From contig DASTLH010000036.1 in assembly GCA_035715145.1 (NCBI GenBank), positions 1 through 48,660 of the forward strand: a stretch of DNA of 48,660 nucleotides, read 5' to 3'. The notes under the pieces were generated by a model. That model was not told the origin of the DNA and did no database searches. It saw only the letters and a list, made by a program, of their open reading frames with translations. The position numbers and the translations under genes were made by a program. Source of the DNA: Patescibacteria group bacterium (GTDB lineage Bacteria > Patescibacteriota > Microgenomatia > Levybacterales > UBA12049). Below are positions 10,201-35,843 of this stretch, piece by piece; within the stretch, counting starts at the first letter, position 1; each line of letters opens with the position of its first letter.

Positions 10201-10245
10201 TTCTCAAAAAGTATACAACAATAACCTTGTGATGAAAAGTAATTG

Positions 10246-10274
10246 TTGATTCATCTCTTCACTATTCGTATAAT
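10246..10274 (+). promoter_or_regulatory. promoter TTGATT-17-TATAAT, 7 nt upstream of ATG 10282
   Basis: TTGATT at 10246-10251 and TATAAT at 10269-10274. The TTG at 10243 and ATG at 10273 would lie inside the promoter. Confidence 0.5.
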
Positions 10275-10281
10275 GGCGTGT

Positions 10282-11145
10282 ATGAAATCTTCAGAAGTTC
10301 GATTTGGTGCAATGGCAGATCCCCATTGTGGGGGAGAAGAGGCATTGTATGGTTCTTTACAGTACTGGAAGACAGAAGCGCAAAAAGCAAAGGAAAAGGG
10401 TGCGTCATTTCTTGCTCTTGCTGGAGATATAACCCATAGAGGAAAACCAGAAGAAGCAGCTTTAATTGCTGGAGTTTTGGTTGATGTTTTTGGAAAAGGA
10501 AATGTTTTTACTGTTTTGGGAAATCACGATTTACTCTCTGGACAAGAACGACAAATAAAAAGGATTTTAGAAAGAAGAGGTGTGGTTGTGATGGATGATA
10601 AGGCAACAGTGAGAGTGATCAATGGTCAAAGAGTTGGATTTATTGGCATGAATGGGTCGGTTAGTATTGAAGAGCATAGTGCAATTGCAAAACTTCCTCC
10701 AGAAGCGCGGCCGCAAGCGTTTCACGCAATTACTGCGAGAAGATATCTCCCACAATTTTTGGAAAATTTGGCAGCATTAGAGAGGTCACAAGTTGATGCA
10801 ATTGTTGCACTTATTCATATTCCCATTACCAGACATCAATATTCCGATTTACCCCATGACAGGCTTCATGAAATGACAGACCAAACCGCACTTGCTTTGG
10901 AATCAGCAAGCGCTGTTGCAAAAATTGCTGTAGGGGGACATTCTCATAGTTCTCGGGGAAATCCGATGTGGATGCGTCTTGATCCTGTTGCCTATACAGA
11001 AAATGGACTTGTTGCCCTTAATGTGGCGGGCCCTACATCAATTTATCATGGAAGAGACGGGATTGAAGTAATGAGTTTGTTTGCCAGCCAGCACGAACCA
11101 GTACGACGGTTGAGAAACAGTGCTCCTATAAGTGACGTGTCTTAG
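10282..11145 (+). CDS. calcineurin-like metallophosphoesterase
   Basis: Motifs in order: ADPHCG (DxH), LAGDITHRG (GDxxxRG), LGNHD (GNHD/E), LIHIP, GGHSH (GHxH). Confidence 0.8.
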   Translation: MKSSEVRFGAMADPHCGGEEALYGSLQYWKTEAQKAKEKGASFLALAGDITHRGKPEEAALIAGVLVDVFGKGNVFTVLGNHDLLSGQERQIKRILERRGVVVMDDKATVRVINGQRVGFIGMNGSVSIEEHSAIAKLPPEARPQAFHAITARRYLPQFLENLAALERSQVDAIVALIHIPITRHQYSDLPHDRLHEMTDQTALALESASAVAKIAVGGHSHSSRGNPMWMRLDPVAYTENGLVALNVAGPTSIYHGRDGIEVMSLFASQHEPVRRLRNSAPISDVS

Positions 11146-22690: not shown

Positions 22691-23290
22691 TTAGGAAGGT
22701 TTAGCAATTATTACTAATCGCTTGAGATCGGCAAAGCCAACACATGTGTATAAAATAAGTGTTTCTCCTTTTTGACTGGAAAGAATTTTGGTGTCAGTTG
22801 GGTCAACAGTTGCTATTTTTTTAATTGTGTAGTGAAACTGTTTTTTATCTTTATTTGTAAGTGTAATTGTTTGGCCTGTTGAAACCCAAAGCAGTGGACC
22901 AAATCTGTCATTAGTGTTGTGCGCATACACAATAATTGTGCCATTTTCTCCGGGTCTGGCTGACTCTGCAAGATGAGAAACACCATTGTCTGCAATTTGC
23001 CAGACACCTTGAGCAATTACTGTTTCAAAAACAGGGAGCGTAATATCCACATTGGGAATAGAAATATCGGTTGGTTGGGAAGTTCGGTGGGCGACTACCG
23101 GAATAATCTTTTGATTGAAAAAAGAGAGTTGAATAAGCTGGTGAACATGATAGACCACTGCAATACTAATACAAATACTGCCAAGAATAAAAAGGATTTT
23201 ACTTAGAGGGGGAAGAGAATGAGAAGAAGATTTCCTTTTTGAGGAAGAGGATTTTTTCTTATTTACTAAACGTTTTTGCTTTTTTTGCAT
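22691..23290 (-). CDS. sortase-family transpeptidase
   Basis: N-terminal basic tail plus TM anchor, catalytic His in IIVYAHN, catalytic Cys in TLILYTC, and a downstream Arg. The 5' end overlaps its putative substrate gene by 32 nt. Confidence 0.85.
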   Translation of the reverse strand: MQKKQKRLVNKKKSSSSKRKSSSHSLPPLSKILFILGSICISIAVVYHVHQLIQLSFFNQKIIPVVAHRTSQPTDISIPNVDITLPVFETVIAQGVWQIADNGVSHLAESARPGENGTIIVYAHNTNDRFGPLLWVSTGQTITLTNKDKKQFHYTIKKIATVDPTDTKILSSQKGETLILYTCVGFADLKRLVIIAKPS

Positions 23291-24335
23291 AGATATAAGC
23301 TGCTGCCATCATCAGTATACCCATACCAGCGATATCATTGACAAGGGTTTCTTCAAAAGTTCCTGTTGAAGCCATTGTTGATGCTCCCAAAACAGCTTGT
23401 GTTGATGCTCCAAGAACTTGGCCTTGAGGTGCTTGTGTACAAGATGGGCAACTTGAAAGTCCATCACTTCGTCCATCTCCGCCACCTGTTCCACCATTAT
23501 TATTGTTGTTTGGTGTTGCAGTTGGAGTAGGTGCTGCTGTTGGGGTAGCAGTTGGTGTTGCAGTAGGATTTGCACATGCGTCATCTCCATTTGGATTACT
23601 GCCATCTGTATCGTGGTCACAGTCAAGAATAGGAGTAACAGAAGGAGTTATACATACATCATCGCTATCTGGTTTGCCCCCATCAGTATCACCATCACAA
23701 TCTTTTGTTGGTGTTGGAGTAGGGCTAGCACATACAGATGTACTTGTTGCATTAGTAATATCTCCACTCTCACCAGTTGAAGCATCTGTCCATGTGCCAT
23801 GCTGACATGTAGCATATGTCCATCCCCAAGTACTATAACTATGTCCATCTCCTGTAAAATAATTTTGAAGTAACAAATGAAGTGTCCCGTCTGTTACACA
23901 ATTAGAAACACTACAATCAAGTGTTGGTGGATTAATATCACCCAAGTCATCTTTAGGAGTTCCTGAAATAGTAAATATAGCTCCTCCATTAAATGTTCCG
24001 GTAATTCCTGCACTAAGAGCAGTTCCTGCTTGAGGAGAGTTAGGGCCCGTTGTGGTGAATGTACCACTATCGGTTATTTGACCACAATAGGTGCTTCCTT
24101 GTTTCCAAATTTGCAGATGTCTTGAAAAATTATCATTTGCCCAATTGCCATGATTTCCTGAGTCTGGATCGTTGGTAACAGATTGTGTTTTATCTACTAC
24201 GATATTTCCATTGCATGCAGAAGCTGTTGCTTGTACCGGTTGAGCTACTGGGTGAGAGAAGAATACAATACCTGCAACTAAAGCAAATGCAATAGTTGTC
24301 AGGAGTGTCCCAAGTTTTATAAATCCTTTGTTCAT
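23259..24335 (-). CDS. cell-surface protein with a C-terminal sortase sorting signal
   Basis: N-terminal signal/anchor, the conserved NDxDSG...GNSG domain shared with 35154-35843 and 37902-38564, two DCDxDTDG..P..DD.C repeats, a Thr/Pro linker, then MASTG, a hydrophobic helix and a KKAKTFSK tail. Confidence 0.8.
   Translation of the reverse strand: MNKGFIKLGTLLTTIAFALVAGIVFFSHPVAQPVQATASACNGNIVVDKTQSVTNDPDSGNHGNWANDNFSRHLQIWKQGSTYCGQITDSGTFTTTGPNSPQAGTALSAGITGTFNGGAIFTISGTPKDDLGDINPPTLDCSVSNCVTDGTLHLLLQNYFTGDGHSYSTWGWTYATCQHGTWTDASTGESGDITNATSTSVCASPTPTPTKDCDGDTDGGKPDSDDVCITPSVTPILDCDHDTDGSNPNGDDACANPTATPTATPTAAPTPTATPNNNNNGGTGGGDGRSDGLSSCPSCTQAPQGQVLGASTQAVLGASTMASTGTFEETLVNDIAGMGILMMAAAYIYAKKAKTFSK
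23574..23702 (-). repeat. two tandem acidic Cys-flanked repeats (thrombospondin-type-3-like calcium-binding motif) within the surface protein
   Basis: DCDGDTDGGKPDSDDVC (aa 212-228) and DCDHDTDGSNPNGDDAC (aa 238-254), followed by a PTATPTATPTAAPTPTATP linker. Confidence 0.6.
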
Positions 24336-24435: not shown

Positions 24436-24822
24436 TTATTTGAGGAATTGTTTGGCAAAATCGTCAGCTTCTTTTTCTTGTTTGGAAATTTCCTCTTTTG
24501 ACTGATTGGAAAACACTGCATTTCTATGCCCAAGCATGACGTGTCCTATTTCATGGGCAATAGTGTAGTAGATTTGGTGAAGTTCTTGAGAAAGGAGTTC
24601 ATCACTTAAAAAGATAAGATGTTGGTTTTTTAAATCATTTCCTGTAAAGGTGAATGCCCAGGCATCGTCCATAGATGCCATAAACCAGCAATTGGCAGTA
24701 ATATACTCAATAATTTTGTCTGGAAAAAACGTGAGAACTTCGCAAACAAATGTTTTCATTTTTTTATTTCCGACAAGTTTTCCTTGGAATGCCTGATAAA
24801 TAGGGAGTAAATCGTTTCTCAC
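24436..24822 (-). CDS. ImmA/IrrE-like zinc metallopeptidase
   Basis: HEIGHVMLGH (HExxH) followed by EKEADDFAKQFL (E.EAn.FA motif). GTG 24822 lies 6 nt downstream of TGcTATACT (24837-24829, minus strand). The alternative start is ATG 24759. Confidence 0.65.
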   Translation of the reverse strand: MRNDLLPIYQAFQGKLVGNKKMKTFVCEVLTFFPDKIIEYITANCWFMASMDDAWAFTFTGNDLKNQHLIFLSDELLSQELHQIYYTIAHEIGHVMLGHRNAVFSNQSKEEISKQEKEADDFAKQFLK

Positions 24823-25437: not shown

Positions 25438-25466
25438 TTGACAATTAGAGGGAAACAAGATATAGT
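25438..25466 (+). promoter_or_regulatory. promoter TTGACA-17-TATAGT upstream of the metallophosphoesterase/RHH gene pair
   Basis: TTGACA at 25438-25443, 17-nt spacer, TATAGT at 25461-25466. The ATG lies 12 nt downstream with no SD. Confidence 0.55.
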
Positions 25467-25478
25467 ACCCAAAATATT

Positions 25479-26312
25479 ATGGGACGAGAAACAGCTTCAG
25501 AAAGAAAAGTAGTAGCAGGCGCTGCTGACCTTCATGTCAGACGTGATGTTCCTTCTTCTCGAGAACGATTCAGTAGTACCATTGCTGCCTTCATACAAGG
25601 AGAAGCACAATACCTTTTTCTTAATGGCGATACCTTTGACCAGAAAGCAACGTATGATGATGTCACATTCGTAGCTGGTGAGCTTCAAAAAGCCAGACTT
25701 GCCGGGAAAAGAATTTTTGGACTTTCAGGCAATCATGAGGAGCGAATGACAGATCCCAAGCATCAAAAAGTAATCAGTATGCTCTCAGAGGCTGGAGTCG
25801 AGTTTTTTGATGATCAACTCGTAGAGCTTGAAGGAGTAGTTTTTGTTGGCGTACCCTGCATCTTATCAAAGCCACAACAGGATGGTATTCATGCTTTGCC
25901 GGTAAGAGAACAAGCTGCTGCTATGCAAAGACAACTTGAAGAAACCCATGGGGAAACGTTTGAAAAACTTATGGAAGAGGCAAAAAGAAGGGAAAAACCG
26001 GTTATTGTCTGGTTTCATAATCCACCAATTGCTCAGGCGTATGGTGACGAATTATCAAACTACGATCCCGTTGAATTACCCGGGCGATTTGCAAAGGCAA
26101 TGGACCCCCATGTGGTTGCAGTCGCTCTTAATGGGCACTTACACGGAAAACCGTTTAAAGGAGTCAGGTTGGCAGAAACACCTGAGGGTATTTTAATCAT
26201 CAATAACGCAATAGGTGTTATGGGGGGAATTACCTATGTAACACTGCCTGAATCAATTGGAGATATTCCGGCAGCCAGAACCATAACAGGCCGACGAATT
26301 CAATCTCAATGA
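25479..26312 (+). CDS. calcineurin-like metallophosphoesterase
   Basis: AADLHV (DxH), LNGDTFD (GD), SGNHEE (GNHE), WFHNPP, NGHLHG (GHxH). Confidence 0.8.
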   Translation: MGRETASERKVVAGAADLHVRRDVPSSRERFSSTIAAFIQGEAQYLFLNGDTFDQKATYDDVTFVAGELQKARLAGKRIFGLSGNHEERMTDPKHQKVISMLSEAGVEFFDDQLVELEGVVFVGVPCILSKPQQDGIHALPVREQAAAMQRQLEETHGETFEKLMEEAKRREKPVIVWFHNPPIAQAYGDELSNYDPVELPGRFAKAMDPHVVAVALNGHLHGKPFKGVRLAETPEGILIINNAIGVMGGITYVTLPESIGDIPAARTITGRRIQSQ

Positions 26313-26899
26313 CACAACACAAAAATATGAAAATAGGATTATTAACATCATATAGAGCACAAAAACAGTTTGAAAAACAATTCAAGCAAATGGTTGCTCA
26401 TCTTGAAAAGAGAGGACATATAGTTGTTCATAATTTTGAGATGTCTCTTGAAAAACTGCTGCCTCTTACGTATCCGCAGCGTGAAAAAGTATTTCTTTCT
26501 TTTTATGAAAAACTTGAAGGGTGTGACTTGGTGATTGCCGAGTGCTCTTTGCAAAGTACGCAAGTAGGATTTGGATTGTCCTATCTGCGAACACGGGGAA
26601 AACCGATTGTCATTTTGTCAAAAAAAGGCTCAGGAAGTGAGTTTGCTACTGTTGGAGAACTCTATTCAACCGTTGAGAATATGATGATTGATGAGTACTC
26701 TGATGAAACAATTCCAAGAGTTTTAGATGATGTTATTGCATTTATGGAACCACACTTAGACAAACGATTTACCATTATTTTCCCAGCAAGTCTTCTGGCA
26801 AAAGTAGAAGATGTGGCAAAGAAAAAGAAGCTGCCAAAAGCTGTTTATATTAGACAATTGATAGAAAAAGACCTCAAAGATTCCTCAGAAAATCAGTAA
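26309..26899 (+). CDS. two-domain protein: N-terminal Rossmann-like domain (nucleoside 2-deoxyribosyltransferase-like?) fused to a C-terminal ribbon-helix-helix DNA-binding domain
   Basis: ATGA overlap with the phosphoesterase gene. CDLVIAECS...VGFGLSYLRTRGKPIVIL resembles the NDT-like core. The C-terminal RFTIIFPASLLAKVEDVAKKKKLPKAVYIRQLIEKDL fits a beta-alpha-alpha RHH (CopG/Arc) pattern. Confidence 0.5.
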   Translation: MTQHKNMKIGLLTSYRAQKQFEKQFKQMVAHLEKRGHIVVHNFEMSLEKLLPLTYPQREKVFLSFYEKLEGCDLVIAECSLQSTQVGFGLSYLRTRGKPIVILSKKGSGSEFATVGELYSTVENMMIDEYSDETIPRVLDDVIAFMEPHLDKRFTIIFPASLLAKVEDVAKKKKLPKAVYIRQLIEKDLKDSSENQ

Positions 26900-26983
26900 T
26901 TTTATTTTAATTTTTTCGTATTTTCAGTAATTTGCTTTTGCCTTTTTAGCGTGTTTAGCCTCGTGATTCGCATGTGTAGCGCA

Positions 26984-27012
26984 TTGAGTCATTAAAACAC
27001 CAATGATATATT
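26984..27012 (+). promoter_or_regulatory. candidate promoter TTGAGT-17-TATATT for the vWA-PP2C-kinase operon
   Basis: TTGAGT at 26984-26989, 17-nt spacer, TATATT at 27007-27012. ATG 27024 lies 11 nt downstream, and the ORF-track ATG 27003 falls inside the spacer. Confidence 0.4.
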
Positions 27013-27023
27013 GCCAACAAGAT

Positions 27024-28004
27024 ATGGCAGACGAAATGTTTAGACCAGCAACAGAACAAGTAGGACCAGTCCAACGAGAGACGGGGACTCGAGCTATTTT
27101 GAAAAAAGCAGCACCAGCAACAGTGGCAGAAGTTCGCAGTACTTCTCAAAAACTGGAGCGGGAAGTTGATGCAAATGTTCCTCAACTTATTGACGCACTT
27201 ACTACACTTCGAGATTCTCTTGCAGAAGCACGAGTCACTCGGGGTACCAGTACTCGAGCAGAATTGGCAAAAGGTGCCGCTCCCAAAATGACATTAGTTG
27301 TTGTTGGTGATTGCTCTCCCAGTATGGAAACAGGAATCCACCAATGGTCACAAGGGCAATTAAAAGGCGTAGAAGCAGAAGATAAATTAGTAGCACTTTT
27401 AGGCTCCGCTTCTGTTCAAATGTCTACCGGACAATATGGAGAATTTGATACAGAATTTATGCTTTTCAGCCTTCCTGATAGAGCAAATGGAGACGATTTA
27501 AGACAAGATAAGGGAAGTATTCCCGGCAGAGCAAAATCCGGCGGATCAAATAATGTTTCAAAAGTTATTAAGCCAAGAGAACAGGTATTCCGAGAAGAAG
27601 ATTTGGTGGGAGTATTTACCTTTTTACGAGACGGTAATTATCGAGGTAACAGCACCATTGTCGCTCCAAGTCTTCAATTACTCGCAGAAGAATTACAAGC
27701 AAATAGTGAATGGGTACAAAGAGTAAAAAATCACGAAGAAGCATTGGTTGTTTTACTTGTCACTGACGGAGAAGTGTTTGATGCAGCTCAAGCCAATACT
27801 CTTATTAATGGACAAAACGGTCTCGCAGAAAATGGCGCGTATGTTATGACTGCTGTCATTGGTAATGGAGGAAGTCTTATCAGGAGTGCAACAGGGCCTC
27901 ACACCTTCTCAGCAAATAGTCCGGAGGATTTTGTTAAAGGAGTAAAACAACAATCAGATGTAGCGAAATCAGAGAGAGGAGGCAGACGGTTCTCGTCTCG
28001 ATAA
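27024..28004 (+). CDS. von Willebrand factor A (vWA) domain protein with an intact MIDAS motif (TerY-like)
   Basis: LVVVGDCSPSM (DxSxS), a conserved Thr region GNST, LLVTDGEVFD. An N-terminal extension of about 90 aa has unknown function. Confidence 0.75.
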   Translation: MADEMFRPATEQVGPVQRETGTRAILKKAAPATVAEVRSTSQKLEREVDANVPQLIDALTTLRDSLAEARVTRGTSTRAELAKGAAPKMTLVVVGDCSPSMETGIHQWSQGQLKGVEAEDKLVALLGSASVQMSTGQYGEFDTEFMLFSLPDRANGDDLRQDKGSIPGRAKSGGSNNVSKVIKPREQVFREEDLVGVFTFLRDGNYRGNSTIVAPSLQLLAEELQANSEWVQRVKNHEEALVVLLVTDGEVFDAAQANTLINGQNGLAENGAYVMTAVIGNGGSLIRSATGPHTFSANSPEDFVKGVKQQSDVAKSERGGRRFSSR

Positions 28005-28005
28005 T

Positions 28006-28899
28006 ATGGCAGAAAGAAATTCACAACCATTAGTTCCAATTGATAATGTCACTCGCGGAGAAACACTTGCTTCATCAGCGCTTACCCCTGATGCTGCACG
28101 ACAAACAGCAACCGCTGCAGAAGTTGCAGGAAGAATTTTTAGAAGAACCACCAGTAAGCTTGATGCCTCAATGCAAGATATGGGATATCTGGTAGCAGAA
28201 TTGGGACTTGATAAAGACATGTGGCAGGGAAAAATTGAAAGAAAAATTGCTGGACTGGTGAGAGAAAATCCAGGACTTTCAGCAAATGATGCTCGGGTTA
28301 ACTGGGCTGCAAAAGCAGAAGCATACCTGGCACTTACCAAACAATTTGGGTTTAAAGAGGCAGATCAGTATAGCGATTTAAATGAATTATCAGGAGGTTT
28401 GGTAGTTGCTCTGACAGAAAGTGGTTCTGTTGTCATGCTTGGACCAGGCACCAATTACAACGGTACAGGTGCACAAGGCGAAGGACGATTTGCCATGACC
28501 TATATGAAGGGTCGAGAAGGAAACAAACAGCAAGATGATGGACTTGTTCCTCCAGAAGTTCATGTGGCAGACGGAGCAAAAGAAGCAAAAGTAGTTGTTC
28601 TCAATCAGGATTCTGTTTGGGACGACGCAGCAGGAGAATATGTTACAACAAATTGGGCACCAGTTGCTGATGCACCCACAACAAATAGACTTTTAGATAT
28701 CGATCACAGCAAAATTGATAAATCACTTATGGATTCTCAAGGAACGTCCAGACTTTTGAAAGTGATGGTTCTTGCCGGGCCAGAAGATGTTGAAGGAGTT
28801 ATGAGTGCTTTTGAAGGCGTATCAGATGAGATTAATAGACTTACCGGAACTCGTGCCGTTAGACGAAGTCCAGCAGCACAGCCTGCACAGGAGGAATAA
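28006..28899 (+). CDS. hypothetical protein (297 aa), conserved position between the vWA and PP2C genes
   Basis: ATG lies 1 nt after the vWA stop. Composition matches its neighbours. No recognised motif and no TM segment. Confidence 0.65.
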   Translation: MAERNSQPLVPIDNVTRGETLASSALTPDAARQTATAAEVAGRIFRRTTSKLDASMQDMGYLVAELGLDKDMWQGKIERKIAGLVRENPGLSANDARVNWAAKAEAYLALTKQFGFKEADQYSDLNELSGGLVVALTESGSVVMLGPGTNYNGTGAQGEGRFAMTYMKGREGNKQQDDGLVPPEVHVADGAKEAKVVVLNQDSVWDDAAGEYVTTNWAPVADAPTTNRLLDIDHSKIDKSLMDSQGTSRLLKVMVLAGPEDVEGVMSAFEGVSDEINRLTGTRAVRRSPAAQPAQEE

Positions 28900-28902
28900 T
28901 GT

Positions 28903-30654
28903 ATGCCGCCTGAACTACCACAAGACCCTCAGCAGGGGCAAACTACACCAAGAGAAACAGTCCGTTTAGGACCTGTGTCAGAACCTGTAGCAGAACCGAT
29001 AGCCCCACCTGTAGTTGAATTTCGAGTCAGGGTAAGAGAAGCAGCTAAAACGCAAATGGACATGGTACTTCCTGGAGAGAGTGTTTTGGGACGTTTTCGT
29101 GGACCAATTGCTTTGTTCCCCCGAGCTCCCTACGATAAGGACGAAAAAACAGGAGCAGTAACCCAGCCTACATTTGTTTTAGGAACAGAACAAAATCAAA
29201 ATAGACGAGTAGCAGATGTCTCTTCACGATTTGCGTATTCAGACAAGGCAGCTTCATTTGTCTCGTCAGAACAAACGTCACTTGCTCCCAAAGAATTGGT
29301 ATTGGTTCCTCTTCCACTTCCTACAGAACGGGTAGTTTTGACAACCGGCATGAGAGCAGACGGAACAACTTCCCATAGTCCACTCACTCTGTTTCAGGAT
29401 AAAGGACAATATTTTCTCAGAGATCAAGACGGTGGTATTTCTCCTCTTCCATCAGACTTTAGTGTGAGTACCCATGAGCTTAATATGAGGGAAAAGGTTT
29501 ATGTGTCACCACCAGAAAGACAAGGAGAAATTGCAGAGTCAGATGTTTTGGTCAAACAGGATAAAACGGTAATGAATGCAAAAGTGGTTGTTGCCGATGG
29601 TATTCCTTCACTTCTTGTTGAAGGAGCAATGGGGGGAAGTGTGGTTGTTGGAAGACAGGCACTTGATCATCTGCATAGTTTCTATGAAACCAGGGCAACA
29701 AAAACTGAACAATTTAAAGGAGGATTTTTGTTGAGTGTTCCAAGCAAAAGACATCCCTTAAGAAATGAAGATGCAGTTTTTAGAACTCCTGATGGAATTC
29801 ATGTTGTTTTGGACGGAATGGGCTCGTATCAAAGTAATGGCGTTCATACAGGCTATGAACACAGCAGATTGGCACAAGCAGTTATTTTGGAAAGTCTTGC
29901 CGCACGAGGGCAGCAAAAAGAACCTTCACACCAGCTTGAGGCATTTATTGGGGCTTTAGTTGATGCTCATGAAGTTTTAAAAAGAAATATGACGGTTGCT
30001 GGAGATACCACGGTAGCGCTGTCACGAATAATGTCTGACAGAAAAAAAGGTCCGGTTCTTGTGTGGGCAAATATTGGAGACTCACGGGTTATGGTTGTCA
30101 GAAATGGACAGGTTATTCAGGTTTCAGAGGACGATAGTGTTTTGGAAGATTATTATCATGGCAAAGGAATGGACACCTGGATATCAGTTGGAGATAAAAC
30201 ACAGGCTATGCAACTGTTTGAGGCAGGATTTCCTTATGACGAAACTTCAGGAAAAGTGTTTTTTTCAAGAAAACAGGTGGATTTGATGAGATCAATTCTT
30301 GACAGGTTTCATGGGTTTGGTATGTTTGCAACCGATTCATTTCTTGGACAGTTCTTTAGACAAAGTAGTGTTACCAAAGGGCTTAAAGAGCACATGAATA
30401 ATTCAAAAACAGATGTTCACAGTGGCATATTTCAACTAGAACGAGGGGATATGGTTTTAACGATGTCTGACGGAGTGTCAGATCCATTATCAATTGAGGA
30501 TATGGAAATGATTGCAAGGCGAGTGGGGAGAGATCCACAAAAGCTTGCTACAGAAATGCTTGTCCAGGTTGATAAAACAAATGCTACCCCATCTGAATAT
30601 TCCCAGCGAGGGAAAGAAGATGATAAATCTCTCGTTGTGGAGGTGGTTTCATGA
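28903..30654 (+). CDS. PP2C-family Ser/Thr protein phosphatase with a roughly 280-aa N-terminal region of unknown function
   Basis: RNEDAV, VVLDGMGS, ANIGDSRV, MSDGVSD and KEDDKSLVV, in order, in aa 285-583. SD AGGAGGA lies 7 nt upstream of the ATG. Confidence 0.85.
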   Translation: MPPELPQDPQQGQTTPRETVRLGPVSEPVAEPIAPPVVEFRVRVREAAKTQMDMVLPGESVLGRFRGPIALFPRAPYDKDEKTGAVTQPTFVLGTEQNQNRRVADVSSRFAYSDKAASFVSSEQTSLAPKELVLVPLPLPTERVVLTTGMRADGTTSHSPLTLFQDKGQYFLRDQDGGISPLPSDFSVSTHELNMREKVYVSPPERQGEIAESDVLVKQDKTVMNAKVVVADGIPSLLVEGAMGGSVVVGRQALDHLHSFYETRATKTEQFKGGFLLSVPSKRHPLRNEDAVFRTPDGIHVVLDGMGSYQSNGVHTGYEHSRLAQAVILESLAARGQQKEPSHQLEAFIGALVDAHEVLKRNMTVAGDTTVALSRIMSDRKKGPVLVWANIGDSRVMVVRNGQVIQVSEDDSVLEDYYHGKGMDTWISVGDKTQAMQLFEAGFPYDETSGKVFFSRKQVDLMRSILDRFHGFGMFATDSFLGQFFRQSSVTKGLKEHMNNSKTDVHSGIFQLERGDMVLTMSDGVSDPLSIEDMEMIARRVGRDPQKLATEMLVQVDKTNATPSEYSQRGKEDDKSLVVEVVS

Positions 30655-32189
30655 GGCCATATCCATCAATTCTTTCTCCTTTCTCCCATGGCGCTGAAAT
30701 GGGAGGAGTTCGTATTCCGTTTACTCTTGCTGTTTATTCCGGACCAACCCTGAGAGAACCAAGGCAAAATGAAGCAATTCATCAGGGAGTTAATGGCATT
30801 CAAGTTGGAAAAGGATTGTATCAGATTGATGGGAAATTAAGTGAAGGCGGCATGGGAGTTACGTATCGGGCACGACTTCATAGTACTCAAGAAGGCGCTA
30901 CTCCATCAGAATTGAAAGCGCTTCCCTCACGAGTTGTGGTAAAAGAAATGACATTTCAAATTCCAGAAATGTTTTTAACTCGTGCAACTGCAGAGACCTA
31001 TGTCAAAGAATGGCGAGCAGAACGGGTAGCAAAAGACGGGTTAGTTGATGTTTTGGCTCAAAAAATTCCTTTGGTTATCATTGGACAACAACGACGACTT
31101 CGTGCAGAACAAGATCTTGCAAGAAAAATGCGGGCTCAAATGGTAGCAAAAGTTACCGAGCCTTCTCAACGACAGGTTTTAGAAAGTTTTCTTCCAAGAA
31201 ATCCCTCAACCAAACAGGAAGTTTCCAGAGCACTTGAAAGCTACTATGCAGCACAATTAAAAACAGATATTTTGGCACAAATTCCTGGAGCTGAGAGAAA
31301 AACACAAATGGATACAGCTCTTTCTGTTCCAAGGCAAAGGCAAGCTGGAGGAGAGACAACAGATACTGTTGCTCAGCGGCTTGTTGCCTATACTCAGACT
31401 CCTGAAGCACATGAACTTCAGGAAGATTTAGAGAGGCAAAAAGCTGAATTCCTTCGTGAGGTGGCTGTTCTTAAAATTCTTGAATCAGCAAAAGTGGATC
31501 ATATTCCAAAAGCTGTCGGCGGGCTTATCAGAGCCAATAATGGAAGAAGTGGCATGAAACATATTGTTGACTTGTTTTTTGCCCAAACAGAAATGCCTGG
31601 ACAACCTTTGTCTCAATTTTTGCGCAAAAAAGATGCCGTAACAGGAGATCCAGGACAAACATTTACTGAAAGTTATGCGGTAAAGGCAATGATTAAGTAT
31701 CTGCGAACTCTTGAGCAAATTCAGGCAGCAGGATTTGTCTATAGAGATGGAAAACCGGAAAATACTCTTTTTGATATCAAAACAGGAGAAATATCAATTG
31801 TTGATTTTGGAATTGCCGTTCCGGTAAAGCCGGATGTCATTGCCCGAATGAAAAAAGAGGGAATTGTGACTGATGCTGTGGCACAGGGGACTCTGGGGTA
31901 TTATCCACCAGAGGCAACAAGGCGAATTCCAGTTATTGATGAGCGGGGCGATACTTTTTCAGCAGCGAAATTATTGTATGCACTTCTTACTGCAGAGCTT
32001 CAGCCAGATGATAATCCGGTTGTTTTTGTTAATGAGCAGCTTATGCAGGTCCCAGACAGTATTATTTCTCGTCCTTTGAAAGCAATTATTACCAGAGGAG
32101 TAGATCCCCAATATGAGCAGCGCTATACTCCTGCACAAATGAGAGAGCAATTGGAAACTCATCTGGAGAAAATCTCCCGACGAACCTAA
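30651..32189 (+). CDS. Hanks-type Ser/Thr protein kinase, soluble, with a large insertion between beta3 and helix C
   Basis: G-loop GKLSEGGMGVTY (aa 61-72), VVVKEM Lys98, EFLREVAVL Glu270, catalytic loop YRDGKPEN (aa 364-371), VDFGIA (aa 384-389), GTLGYYPPE. ATGA overlap with the PP2C gene. SD GGAGGTGG. Confidence 0.85.
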   Translation: MRPYPSILSPFSHGAEMGGVRIPFTLAVYSGPTLREPRQNEAIHQGVNGIQVGKGLYQIDGKLSEGGMGVTYRARLHSTQEGATPSELKALPSRVVVKEMTFQIPEMFLTRATAETYVKEWRAERVAKDGLVDVLAQKIPLVIIGQQRRLRAEQDLARKMRAQMVAKVTEPSQRQVLESFLPRNPSTKQEVSRALESYYAAQLKTDILAQIPGAERKTQMDTALSVPRQRQAGGETTDTVAQRLVAYTQTPEAHELQEDLERQKAEFLREVAVLKILESAKVDHIPKAVGGLIRANNGRSGMKHIVDLFFAQTEMPGQPLSQFLRKKDAVTGDPGQTFTESYAVKAMIKYLRTLEQIQAAGFVYRDGKPENTLFDIKTGEISIVDFGIAVPVKPDVIARMKKEGIVTDAVAQGTLGYYPPEATRRIPVIDERGDTFSAAKLLYALLTAELQPDDNPVVFVNEQLMQVPDSIISRPLKAIITRGVDPQYEQRYTPAQMREQLETHLEKISRRT

Positions 32190-35153: not shown

Positions 35154-35843
35154 ATGAAAAAACTTATTTTAGGACTTTCTACCATTGCAATTGTGATTGC
35201 TGTTTTAGTATCCTACTCCGCACACGCATTTGCTGATGATAGACCAAGTCCTTCTCAGGATAGAGATGATCATGCAAGCAGTAGATTTAATCCAGATGGG
35301 CAATTATCACAATCATCTTGTGGTAAGGATTTAGAAAAACCTGTTATTGATGTTACTCAAAAAGTACAAAACGATGCAGATTCAGGACAGGCTGGTAATT
35401 ACTGGGCATTTGATTATTACACACGACATATTAAAGTGTGGACAACCAAATCTGAAGAGGGGAATACCTACTGTGCAATTGTTACCTATGATGGTAAATT
35501 TTACACAGTTCCCGGACAAATCGGGCCAGGAAATGATCCAGTAGGTGCTGTGATAGATTCTTCTACAAATCAACCAGTAAATGGTGACATGAGTGGAGGA
35601 CGAAGAGCAACCATTGTTGGAACTCTTCTTACAACGCCATCATGGCCTACACACGGAAGTGTTGGAACAACAAATTACCAATGTAATATCAGTGGTAATT
35701 GTCCAGGAGTTATTTCTTGGGCAGGGCAATATTTTGCTCAAGGATATAGCAATACTGATGTCTGGTGGGGATGGAAATATACCGCCGGAAGTCATGGAAC
35801 ATGGATTAATGCAATTACTGGAAATTCAGGGAACATTCTCTAA
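35154..35843 (+). CDS. secreted protein of the NDxDSG...GNSG family (paralog 2)
   Basis: Signal peptide. VQNDADSGQAGNYWAFD, TYCA, YQCNISGNCPG, WWGWKY, GTWINAITGNSGNIL. Strong SD AGGAGGTGA. Confidence 0.75.
   Translation: MKKLILGLSTIAIVIAVLVSYSAHAFADDRPSPSQDRDDHASSRFNPDGQLSQSSCGKDLEKPVIDVTQKVQNDADSGQAGNYWAFDYYTRHIKVWTTKSEEGNTYCAIVTYDGKFYTVPGQIGPGNDPVGAVIDSSTNQPVNGDMSGGRRATIVGTLLTTPSWPTHGSVGTTNYQCNISGNCPGVISWAGQYFAQGYSNTDVWWGWKYTAGSHGTWINAITGNSGNIL

Follow-up and report, generated by a model that had tools for sequence, protein, structure and literature searches.

Contig DASTLH010000036.1 of the Patescibacteria group bacterium assembly GCA_035715145.1, analysed here over its whole stretch of 48,660 nucleotides (the window), carries a cassette of four tightly packed genes for a vWA protein, an orphan protein that we call X, a PP2C phosphatase and a Ser/Thr kinase. 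In the contigs in which they were found, these genes form a very rare and strictly co-inherited unit, which may work as a reversible-phosphorylation module. The genes of the cassette are as follows:

27024 to 28004, forward strand: gene 1, vWA/MIDAS protein, 326 amino acids when counted from M8 (the open reading frame is listed from 27003)
28006 to 28899, forward strand: gene 2, partner protein X, 297 amino acids, orphan family
28903 to 30654, forward strand: gene 3, PP2C phosphatase, 583 amino acids
30651 to 32189, forward strand: gene 4, soluble Hanks-type Ser/Thr kinase, 512 amino acids

An earlier note on this DNA, made from its letters alone, had described four co-directional open reading frames with gaps of 1 and 3 nucleotides, an ATGA overlap and two internal Shine-Dalgarno sites, all of which we verified in the sequence. 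Genes 1 and 2 meet at TAA-T-ATG, genes 2 and 3 at TAA-TGT-ATG with AGGAGGA 7 nucleotides 5' of the ATG at 28903, and genes 3 and 4 share the ATGA, with GGAGGTGG 6 nucleotides 5' of the ATG at 30651. For gene 1 the stop at 28004 on the forward strand stands as it was given, while the start has to be moved from 27003 to the ATG at 27024 (M8), which is almost certainly the real one as judged by two features: a conserved −10 box (27007-27012) sits 3' of the ATG at 27003, and every orthologue starts at the M8 position. The database copy of the vWA protein, at 326 amino acids, likewise begins at this second ATG. With the start at 27024, the leader of the vWA-gene transcript may be very short. None of the four proteins has a transmembrane helix (the highest Kyte-Doolittle average over 19 residues is at most 1.45, against 2.69 for the neighbouring TspO as a control), and domain searches of the four found neither a PASTA domain nor any other sensor domain, as the note had said. 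Its impression of a genome of the candidate phyla radiation (CPR) is likewise supported, since the nearest relatives of the cysteinyl-tRNA synthetase (CysRS) encoded in the window belong to Levyibacteriota/Patescibacteria metagenome-assembled genomes (MAGs), at 64-74% identity; the host is a CPR bacterium. Several TPA-assembled MAGs (L005, L006, L013, L014 and others in our numbering of compared loci) are titled 'uncultured Gammaproteobacteria', with a CysRS 59-74% identical to that of the window; they cluster with Levyibacteriota/Paceibacterota MAGs and their titles are probably mislabelled.

The product of gene 1 had been read as a vWA protein with an intact MIDAS, which is correct and which Pfam by itself would have been insufficient to establish: its sole match there is VWA_CoxE, at an E-value of 0.025, below the cutoff. 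An AlphaFold2 model built from five family members (pLDDT, the predicted score in the local distance difference test, 80.7; predicted template modelling score, pTM, 0.82) has 64 significant neighbours in the PDB by Foldseek, and all of the top ones are vWA/MIDAS domains, among them the MIDAS domain of MDN1/Rea1 (E=5e-9), NorD, CMG2, TEM8, TRAP and integrin I domains. The MIDAS residues D103, S105, S107, T218 and D255 are invariant, leaving the DxSxS/T/D signature intact, and the motifs are kept in the distant orthologues of loci L085 and L090. On the strength of the model, we assign this protein to the vWA/MIDAS superfamily, with a Rossmann-like fold and a metal site, and in the predicted layout the N-terminus is disordered and is followed by a long helix, a linker that is again disordered and, last, the vWA domain.

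For X, the earlier description of a 297-residue protein without a recognisable motif was borne out by every search that we made. Neither the single sequence nor a 10-member profile matched anything in Pfam, NCBIfam, PADLOC or the sequences of the PDB, and internal comparisons found no homology of X with the PP2C N-terminus, the kinase, the TerY_C protein or the tail of the kinase of TerY-P, a known vWA-PP2C-kinase system to which we return below. A structure prediction for 28006-28899, which had been suggested as a check, gave a confident model (pLDDT 79.9 and pTM 0.76, with a core above 90) comprising disordered tails, a four-helix N-terminal part (residues 37-114), a β-rich core (residues 132-256) and a C-terminal helix. 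Foldseek found no structural neighbour of this model in the PDB (best E=0.07, TM-score below 0.2) or in BFVD, so that X is apparently a protein of new fold. The vWA protein and X have a short motif in common, (T/S)G(T/S)R(A/G), which occurs twice in the former (residues 27-31 and 81-86) and once in the C-terminal tail of the latter (LTGTRAV). All copies fall in disordered segments of low pLDDT, the motif is found in every member of the window's clade, and its (T/S)G(T/S)RA form has no occurrence in the 12,659 residues of the other window proteins.

The two enzymes appear to be catalytically competent, judging from their conserved residues. The phosphatase, whose identity as a PP2C enzyme is confirmed, matches PP2C_2 (E=3e-8), PP2C and the tail of SpoIIE in Pfam, and its catalytic domain (residues ~270-583) has all of the metal-binding motifs, with R287/E289/D290, D304-G305, G392-D393-S394, S522-D523-G524 and D573-D574 invariant. 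In front of this domain lies an N-terminal module of ~265 residues (aa ~40-265) that looks β-rich, is conserved in L085, L090 and L091, and has no match in Pfam or the PDB. The Hanks-type kinase with a large insertion, as gene 4 had been described, is also upheld: it matches Pfam Pkinase (E=1e-15) over residues 261-498, the domain extends to about residue 507 of 512 without a C-terminal extension, and G66, G67, G69, K98, E270, R365, D366, K368, N371 and D385 are invariant. Between the β3 lysine (K98) and the αC glutamate (E270) is a conserved insertion of ~170 residues that has invariant positions of its own and no match in Pfam or the PDB; an annexin match to it was set aside as not significant (E=0.15). 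The orthologous kinase of locus L093 (GCA_009772315.1, 12569-13849) has 426 residues and a much shorter β3-αC insertion, and the length of the insertion therefore varies within the family.

All four families are rare to a similar degree, as would fit an obligate partnership. Among 5.8 billion clustered proteins we found 5, 4 and 4 homologues of proteins 1, 2 and 3, respectively, and an exhaustive HMMER profile search of 1.84 billion representatives returned only 7 clusters for X. There are no relatives of the vWA protein in the 185,579 GTDB species representatives or in IMG/VR. The family has very few members and is probably limited to one lineage. We retrieved the genomic context for 6 of the 7 X clusters and compared the 12 contigs that reach far enough (the window, L001, L002, L004, L093, L085-L087, L090, L089 and L091/L092). 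In 12 of 12 the four families are present in the same order, with full-length alignments that take in the phosphatase N-terminal module as well as the kinase insertion, and there is no counter-example; the neighbourhood-conservation check proposed in the earlier note thus finds the genes always together. The cassettes of L085 and L090 are down to 31-37% identity and have unrelated flanks (Fic and TopIB genes at L085, where TopIB is 56% identical to that of L002, and a MerR gene at L090), so the linkage of the four genes is not mere shared synteny. Within the window's clade, the cassette occupies a single syntenic chromosomal site after a rhodanese-SelR-MFS-PMT_2-NUDIX array, which points to vertical inheritance and not to mobility.

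Upstream of the cassette we found a candidate regulator gene, an operator-like element and a putative promoter, of which the conserved regulator gene and the operator had been overlooked in the earlier note. The features are these, with one further gene before them:

25479 to 26312, forward strand: calcineurin-like metallophosphoesterase (Pfam Metallophos, E=2.3e-9), an optional accessory and not core
26309 to 26899, forward strand: candidate transcriptional regulator (DNPH1/Rcl-like domain plus ribbon-helix-helix), directly 5' of the cassette
26954 to 26989: conserved intergenic block TTTAGCCTCGTGATTCGCATGTGTAGCGCATTGAGT, 36 nucleotides, candidate operator, with the imperfect palindrome ATTCGCA-N5-AGCGCAT at 26966-26984
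27007 to 27012, forward strand: −10-like TATATT with TGA before it, putative operon promoter, 17 nucleotides past TTGAGT, a consensus match

Each of the six contigs in the window's clade has the regulator gene, of 186-196 codons, on the same strand, with 54-66% identity between its products, whereas the distant loci L085 and L090 do not have it. Its profile matches Rcl/DNPH1 (2'-deoxynucleoside 5'-phosphate N-hydrolase, of the nucleoside 2-deoxyribosyltransferase fold) at E≈9e-4 over residues 5-135, a likeness of some 130 residues, and CopG at E=0.77 over residues 145-181; there is also a weak RelB-like match in NCBIfam (residues 159-191). As in the CopG and RelB repressors, the C-terminal ~35 residues fit the β-strand and two helices of a ribbon-helix-helix domain. 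The glutamate of the GYELG motif of Rcl, which we take to be the catalytic nucleophile, aligns with an invariant glycine (GFGLS) in the regulator, and because of this replacement the domain looks like a binder and not an enzyme; a non-catalytic binding role is probable on the alignment. We know of no described fusion of the DNPH1/Rcl fold to a ribbon-helix-helix domain. At L003, the most divergent member of the clade, an extra open reading frame of 115 amino acids is called between the regulator and vWA genes (2432-2779), and the vWA gene is called with a long N-terminal extension, probably a start-site miscall.

The intergenic block is kept in all six clade members within spacers that have otherwise diverged, and the right end of the palindrome abuts the −35-like TTGAGT (26984-26989). 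Its half-sites covary between genomes, reading AATTCGCA/TGCGAATT in L003 (a perfect palindrome), ATGCGTA/AACGCAT in L001 and L002, and ATGCGCA/GGCGCAT in L004, and the window contains a single site versus 0.32 expected by chance. The −10 region is conserved as TGnTATATT, with TGATAnATT at the same place in orthologous spacers. This layout is as expected for a ribbon-helix-helix operator and suggests that the palindrome and the regulator form a repressor-operator pair for the operon. The metallophosphoesterase gene overlaps the regulator start with its stop codon (ATGA, translationally coupled) and has promoter-like elements of its own (TTGACA-17-TATAGT, 25438-25466). A Metallophos gene lies at the same position in L003 only, at 23% identity, and is absent in L001, L002 and L093; the window holds a second calcineurin-like metallophosphoesterase gene at 10243-11145.

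The nearest described system in layout is TerY-P, which consists of a TerY-like vWA protein, a PP2C phosphatase and a kinase with a C-terminal Zn-ribbon and which in most cases has ter or DNA-processing genes linked to it (PMC11090510, PMC4978471); TerY-P-like modules have also been reported as stand-alone defence systems (Gao et al. 2020, as relayed in PMC11090510), where the version described as tested has an OB fold instead of the Zn-ribbon. As references we used the module of plasmid R478 (NC_005211, 61.2-67.5 kb; L095 11238-17465) and two divergent plasmid versions. The order in R478 is TerY vWA (with TerY_C), PP2C and Ser/Thr kinase, and the window cassette resembles it in having adjacent genes for a vWA protein, an active PP2C and an active Hanks-type kinase in the same order, in a tightly coupled operon, with all products soluble. 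Both phosphatases, moreover, have an N-terminal extension of ~270-280 residues before a PP2C_2-type core. The long N-terminal module, which had been listed as a departure from TerY-P, is therefore not one, the R478 phosphatase having 545 residues with PP2C_2 only at 284-529. In the TerY-P phosphatases this ~280-residue extension is conserved among L095-L097 (e.g. L095 12763-14400), down to 33% identity between IncHI plasmids, and contains a motif …IPNARAGERFSSPVAI…LTGTPTESGDIELSV… reminiscent of 'putative Ig' (He_PIG-like) repeats; the domain is apparently unannotated.

The window cassette differs from TerY-P in having the extra orphan gene for X between vWA and PP2C; its vWA protein has no match to Pfam VWA or VWA_2, whereas the R478 TerY proteins match VWA at 1e-13 to 2.5e-12 and TerY_C at 3e-53; its kinase has the N-lobe insertion of ~170 residues and no Zn-ribbon or OB tail, whereas the R478 kinase continues after residue ~350 into a CxxC…CxxC tail, a Zn-ribbon/β-rich C-terminal domain; and it is chromosomal, syntenic and CPR-restricted, without ter or DNA-processing neighbours. 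Sequence-level kinship could not be demonstrated by hhalign. The vWA profile aligned with that of TerY at 21% probability (74 columns, over the T…TDG region of the MIDAS), the kinase reached 95% against the TerY-P kinase in an alignment limited to the generic catalytic loop, and the PP2C gave 4.3% in one collinear alignment (q139-326/t158-335), from shallow profiles of 6 and 3 sequences, that starts in the N-terminal module and reaches the first catalytic motifs. All that a plasmid search with the window kinase core returned were generic kinases (about 26% identity), and none of these lay on ter plasmids. In PADLOC the vWA protein (four divergent members) and the PP2C (three) had no match even at E≤10, and we discarded this as a test for TerY-P when the genuine R478 TerY-P proteins, run as a control, also went unrecognised. 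In the copy used here (PADLOC-DB v2.0.0), the R478 proteins match generic kinase models only, and its negatives for TerY-P-like systems are not to be trusted. Of the earlier reading as a four-component TerY-P-like variant, the layout, the gene order and the extra protein thus hold; a TerY-like vWA, a Zn-ribbon or OB tail and ter or DNA-processing neighbours do not, and we do not file the cassette as a member of TerY-P.

Two further systems invite comparison. The Deinococcus radiodurans operon DRA0331-DRA0334 encodes a vWA protein, a Ser/Thr protein kinase, an FHA protein and a KI-FHA-PP2C protein, and its kinase is anchored in the membrane by C-terminal transmembrane helices (bioRxiv 10.64898/2026.01.23.701218). 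It shares with the window cassette the number of genes, the vWA protein, the kinase, a fourth, non-enzymatic adaptor, an N-terminally extended PP2C and a push-pull logic of phospho-regulation. It differs in gene order, in its membrane-bound kinase and in its FHA adaptor, and we detected no sequence similarity beyond the catalytic cores. An FHA identity for X was ruled out: Pfam FHA has no match at E≤1 in X (10 members) or in the phosphatase N-terminal module of any family member, hhalign of the two against the verified FHA domain of GarA gives a probability of 0.1-0.15% (0.15% for X), and the PDB matches of the confident X model include no FHA structure. Actinobacterial GAP1-N2 GTPase-linked kinase(Zn-ribbon)-PP2C-vWA modules have been described, as have vWA-MoxR ternary conflict systems (Kaur, Burroughs, Iyer, Aravind 2020, PMC7159879); here too a stand-alone vWA protein is coupled to a kinase and a PP2C that are both active, and the assembly is proposed to be regulated through the vWA domain. 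The best structural matches of the window vWA domain, those of MDN1 and NorD, are MIDAS domains with AAA+ partners. Unlike these systems, the window cassette and its surroundings encode neither a GTPase nor a MoxR AAA+ ATPase, nor any effector-associated domain, and a vWA-MoxR ternary system, in which a MoxR-type AAA+ ATPase and a VMAP partner adjoin the vWA gene, is excluded, as no AAA+ gene lies in or beside the cassette at any locus.

A separate ancestry of the cassette, proposed earlier from a contrast of 45-52% to 23-30% in G+C content, is not supported by a full count, which gives 42.9% for the cassette and 38.4% for the rest of the window, where single genes have between 30 and 46.5%. 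Codon positions 1 and 2 account for all of the excess, and at position 3 the content (24.8-28.8%) is like that elsewhere (28.6±3.6%). Codon usage is therefore native, the locus is syntenic in relatives, and we rejected horizontal transfer as a reading of the G+C content. The window contains ordinary chromosomal genes (DnaX, PRPP synthetase, CysRS, hexokinase and GlnA), and the neighbours of the cassette are genes for TspO, Metallophos, a sortase, PMT_2 and surface proteins. No ter, McrBC/CoCoNuT, helicase/nuclease or WXG/FtsK genes were found near the cassette in the window or next to it in the related loci. We rejected a defence island: the sole gene resembling a defence regulator encodes an ImmA/IrrE-type peptidase 2 kb away and is not conserved beside the cassette. 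This M78 peptidase (24436-24822, reverse strand, 128 amino acids) is similar to RmrA and CapP, two regulators associated with defence (E≈2e-8); L002 has a gene like it ~4 kb away from the cassette, and none adjoins the cassette in L001 or L093. At L085, a Fic-wHTH (winged helix-turn-helix) gene stands immediately 5' of the distant cassette, and ~9 kb 5' of it (L085 1-1043) are genes for a ThsB-like TIR protein and for a caspase-like protein (Peptidase_C14); these together are the only hint of a conflict-system neighbourhood at any locus. The secreted or surface proteins encoded at 23259-24335 (reverse strand) and 35154-35843 (forward strand) have a similar N-terminal domain (…D[PA]DSG…GN[WY]A…[FY]…RH[LI]…W…YC…). 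The former is Thr/Pro-rich with a hydrophobic anchor at its end and adjoins the sortase gene (22691-23290), and the two may be paralogous sortase substrates. Scans of the window for tRNAs and Rfam families both came back empty.

We interpret the cassette as a self-contained, lineage-restricted module for reversible phosphorylation in which four soluble proteins form a closed phospho-switch, a reading that we hold to be about as probable as its negation. The kinase and the PP2C phosphatase would act antagonistically on the vWA protein and X, encoded just upstream, with the Thr-rich (T/S)G(T/S)RA motifs that both have in their disordered tails as putative acceptor or docking sites. Phosphorylation would switch a MIDAS-dependent assembly of the vWA protein with X or with a third party, and the phosphatase N-terminal module and the kinase insertion would provide surfaces for docking or regulation. 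The operon's own promoter, in the Levyibacteriota-like clade, would be gated by the palindromic operator, to which the upstream ribbon-helix-helix protein presumably binds; the non-catalytic DNPH1-like domain of that protein may sense a (deoxy)nucleotide-type ligand. Several observations weigh against this interpretation. No effector or output domain is recognisable in the four proteins, in keeping with the earlier remark that the effector is not obvious from sequence. That the vWA protein and X are the phosphorylation substrates is something we infer, and in the distant clades (L085, L090 and L089) the motif is found in degenerate form. The regulator and operator are missing from distant clades and so do not belong to the core. 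Finally, given the 56% identity of TopIB between L085 and L002, all of the hosts, those of the distant loci included, may belong to related CPR lineages, in which case the conserved order would be partly inherited and not selected, though the flanks differ.

Other readings account for part of the same evidence. The cassette could be a genuine, highly diverged TerY-P member with an anti-phage function (abortive infection or signalling), X being the missing effector. We consider this unlikely, even though three components, their order and the long phosphatase N-terminus are as in R478, the collinear phosphatase alignment (weak as it is) runs from the N-terminal module into the PP2C core, the vWA protein aligns with TerY in its MIDAS region at the 21% noted, stand-alone TerY-P-like defence modules are on record (Gao 2020, to the extent that PMC11090510 recounts them), and a regulator resembling a nucleotide sensor might suit the nucleoside-metabolite theme of Ter systems. 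Set against these are a vWA protein without the VWA/VWA_2 match that real TerY proteins give at 1e-13, a kinase without the Zn-ribbon or OB tail, surroundings without ter, McrBC, helicase or nuclease genes or a defence island, native codon composition, a syntenic chromosomal position in relatives with no mobile-element signature, and the lack of relatives in IMG/VR; PADLOC, having failed its R478 control, is uninformative. The defence role put forward in the earlier note is therefore unsupported by the neighbourhood, by any effector domain or by PADLOC. A more specific proposal, to which we give still less weight and regard as distinctly improbable, is a hitherto undescribed immune or stress switch of four components confined to CPR/Patescibacteria, in which X would be a new-fold effector or adaptor whose MIDAS-dependent engagement with the vWA protein would be set by a kinase and a phosphatase dedicated to it, via the TGTRA threonines, and in which the ribbon-helix-helix repressor with its DNPH1-like pseudo-enzyme domain would release the unit on an unusual (e.g. 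phage-derived, modified) deoxynucleotide; if true, ultra-small bacteria would have nucleotide sensing coupled to a phospho-relay of a eukaryote-like kind.

An FHA-type phospho-signalling operon like DRA0331-0334, with X or the phosphatase N-terminus as a cryptic FHA reader of phospho-threonine, seems to us very doubtful. It would explain the four components with a vWA protein and an N-terminally extended PP2C (bioRxiv 10.64898/2026.01.23.701218), the Thr-rich motifs would suit FHA recognition, and on inspection the phosphatase N-terminal module looks β-rich and has a G…S-x-x-F spacing like that of degenerate FHA motifs, yet the Pfam, GarA and model searches described above found no FHA domain in either candidate, and the Deinococcus operon has another gene order and a membrane-anchored kinase. 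As for an ordinary PrkC/PrpC-type (Stk1/Stp1) housekeeping pair beside two unrelated genes, the best NCBIfam names are indeed Stp1/IreP for the PP2C and Stk1/PknB for the kinase, but both score far under the equivalog cutoffs (46 versus 230 bits for Stp1_PP2C_phos and 49 versus 450 bits for PknB_PASTA_kin). There is no PASTA domain or transmembrane segment, the four genes are equally rare and always together, with the vWA linkage conserved in all 12 contigs, and the closest GTDB relatives lack the vWA gene. This explanation, which the earlier note had named among those that would overturn its reading, is effectively refuted and was excluded. Of these readings, a closed phospho-switch agrees best with the evidence.

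The genomes of CPR bacteria are tiny, and the signalling systems that can be recognised in them are few. Here, ~5 kb goes to a MIDAS protein, a protein whose fold is apparently new, a phosphatase and a eukaryote-like kinase, and an operon of this size, strictly co-inherited in such genomes, is therefore likely to be important to its hosts. What is new is an obligatory fourth protein of apparently new fold, together with a clade-specific regulator, on the vWA-PP2C-kinase theme. Given that the family is very small, probably restricted to a single lineage and without a known phenotype, the general impact is moderate. For the biology of CPR bacteria and for taking TerY-P-type switches apart the cassette is nevertheless of interest. 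It extends the 'TerY-P-like' theme by an obligatory partner and by candidate phospho-acceptor motifs, and with the upstream regulator there would be a new case in which an enzyme fold has been reused as a ligand sensor on a ribbon-helix-helix repressor.

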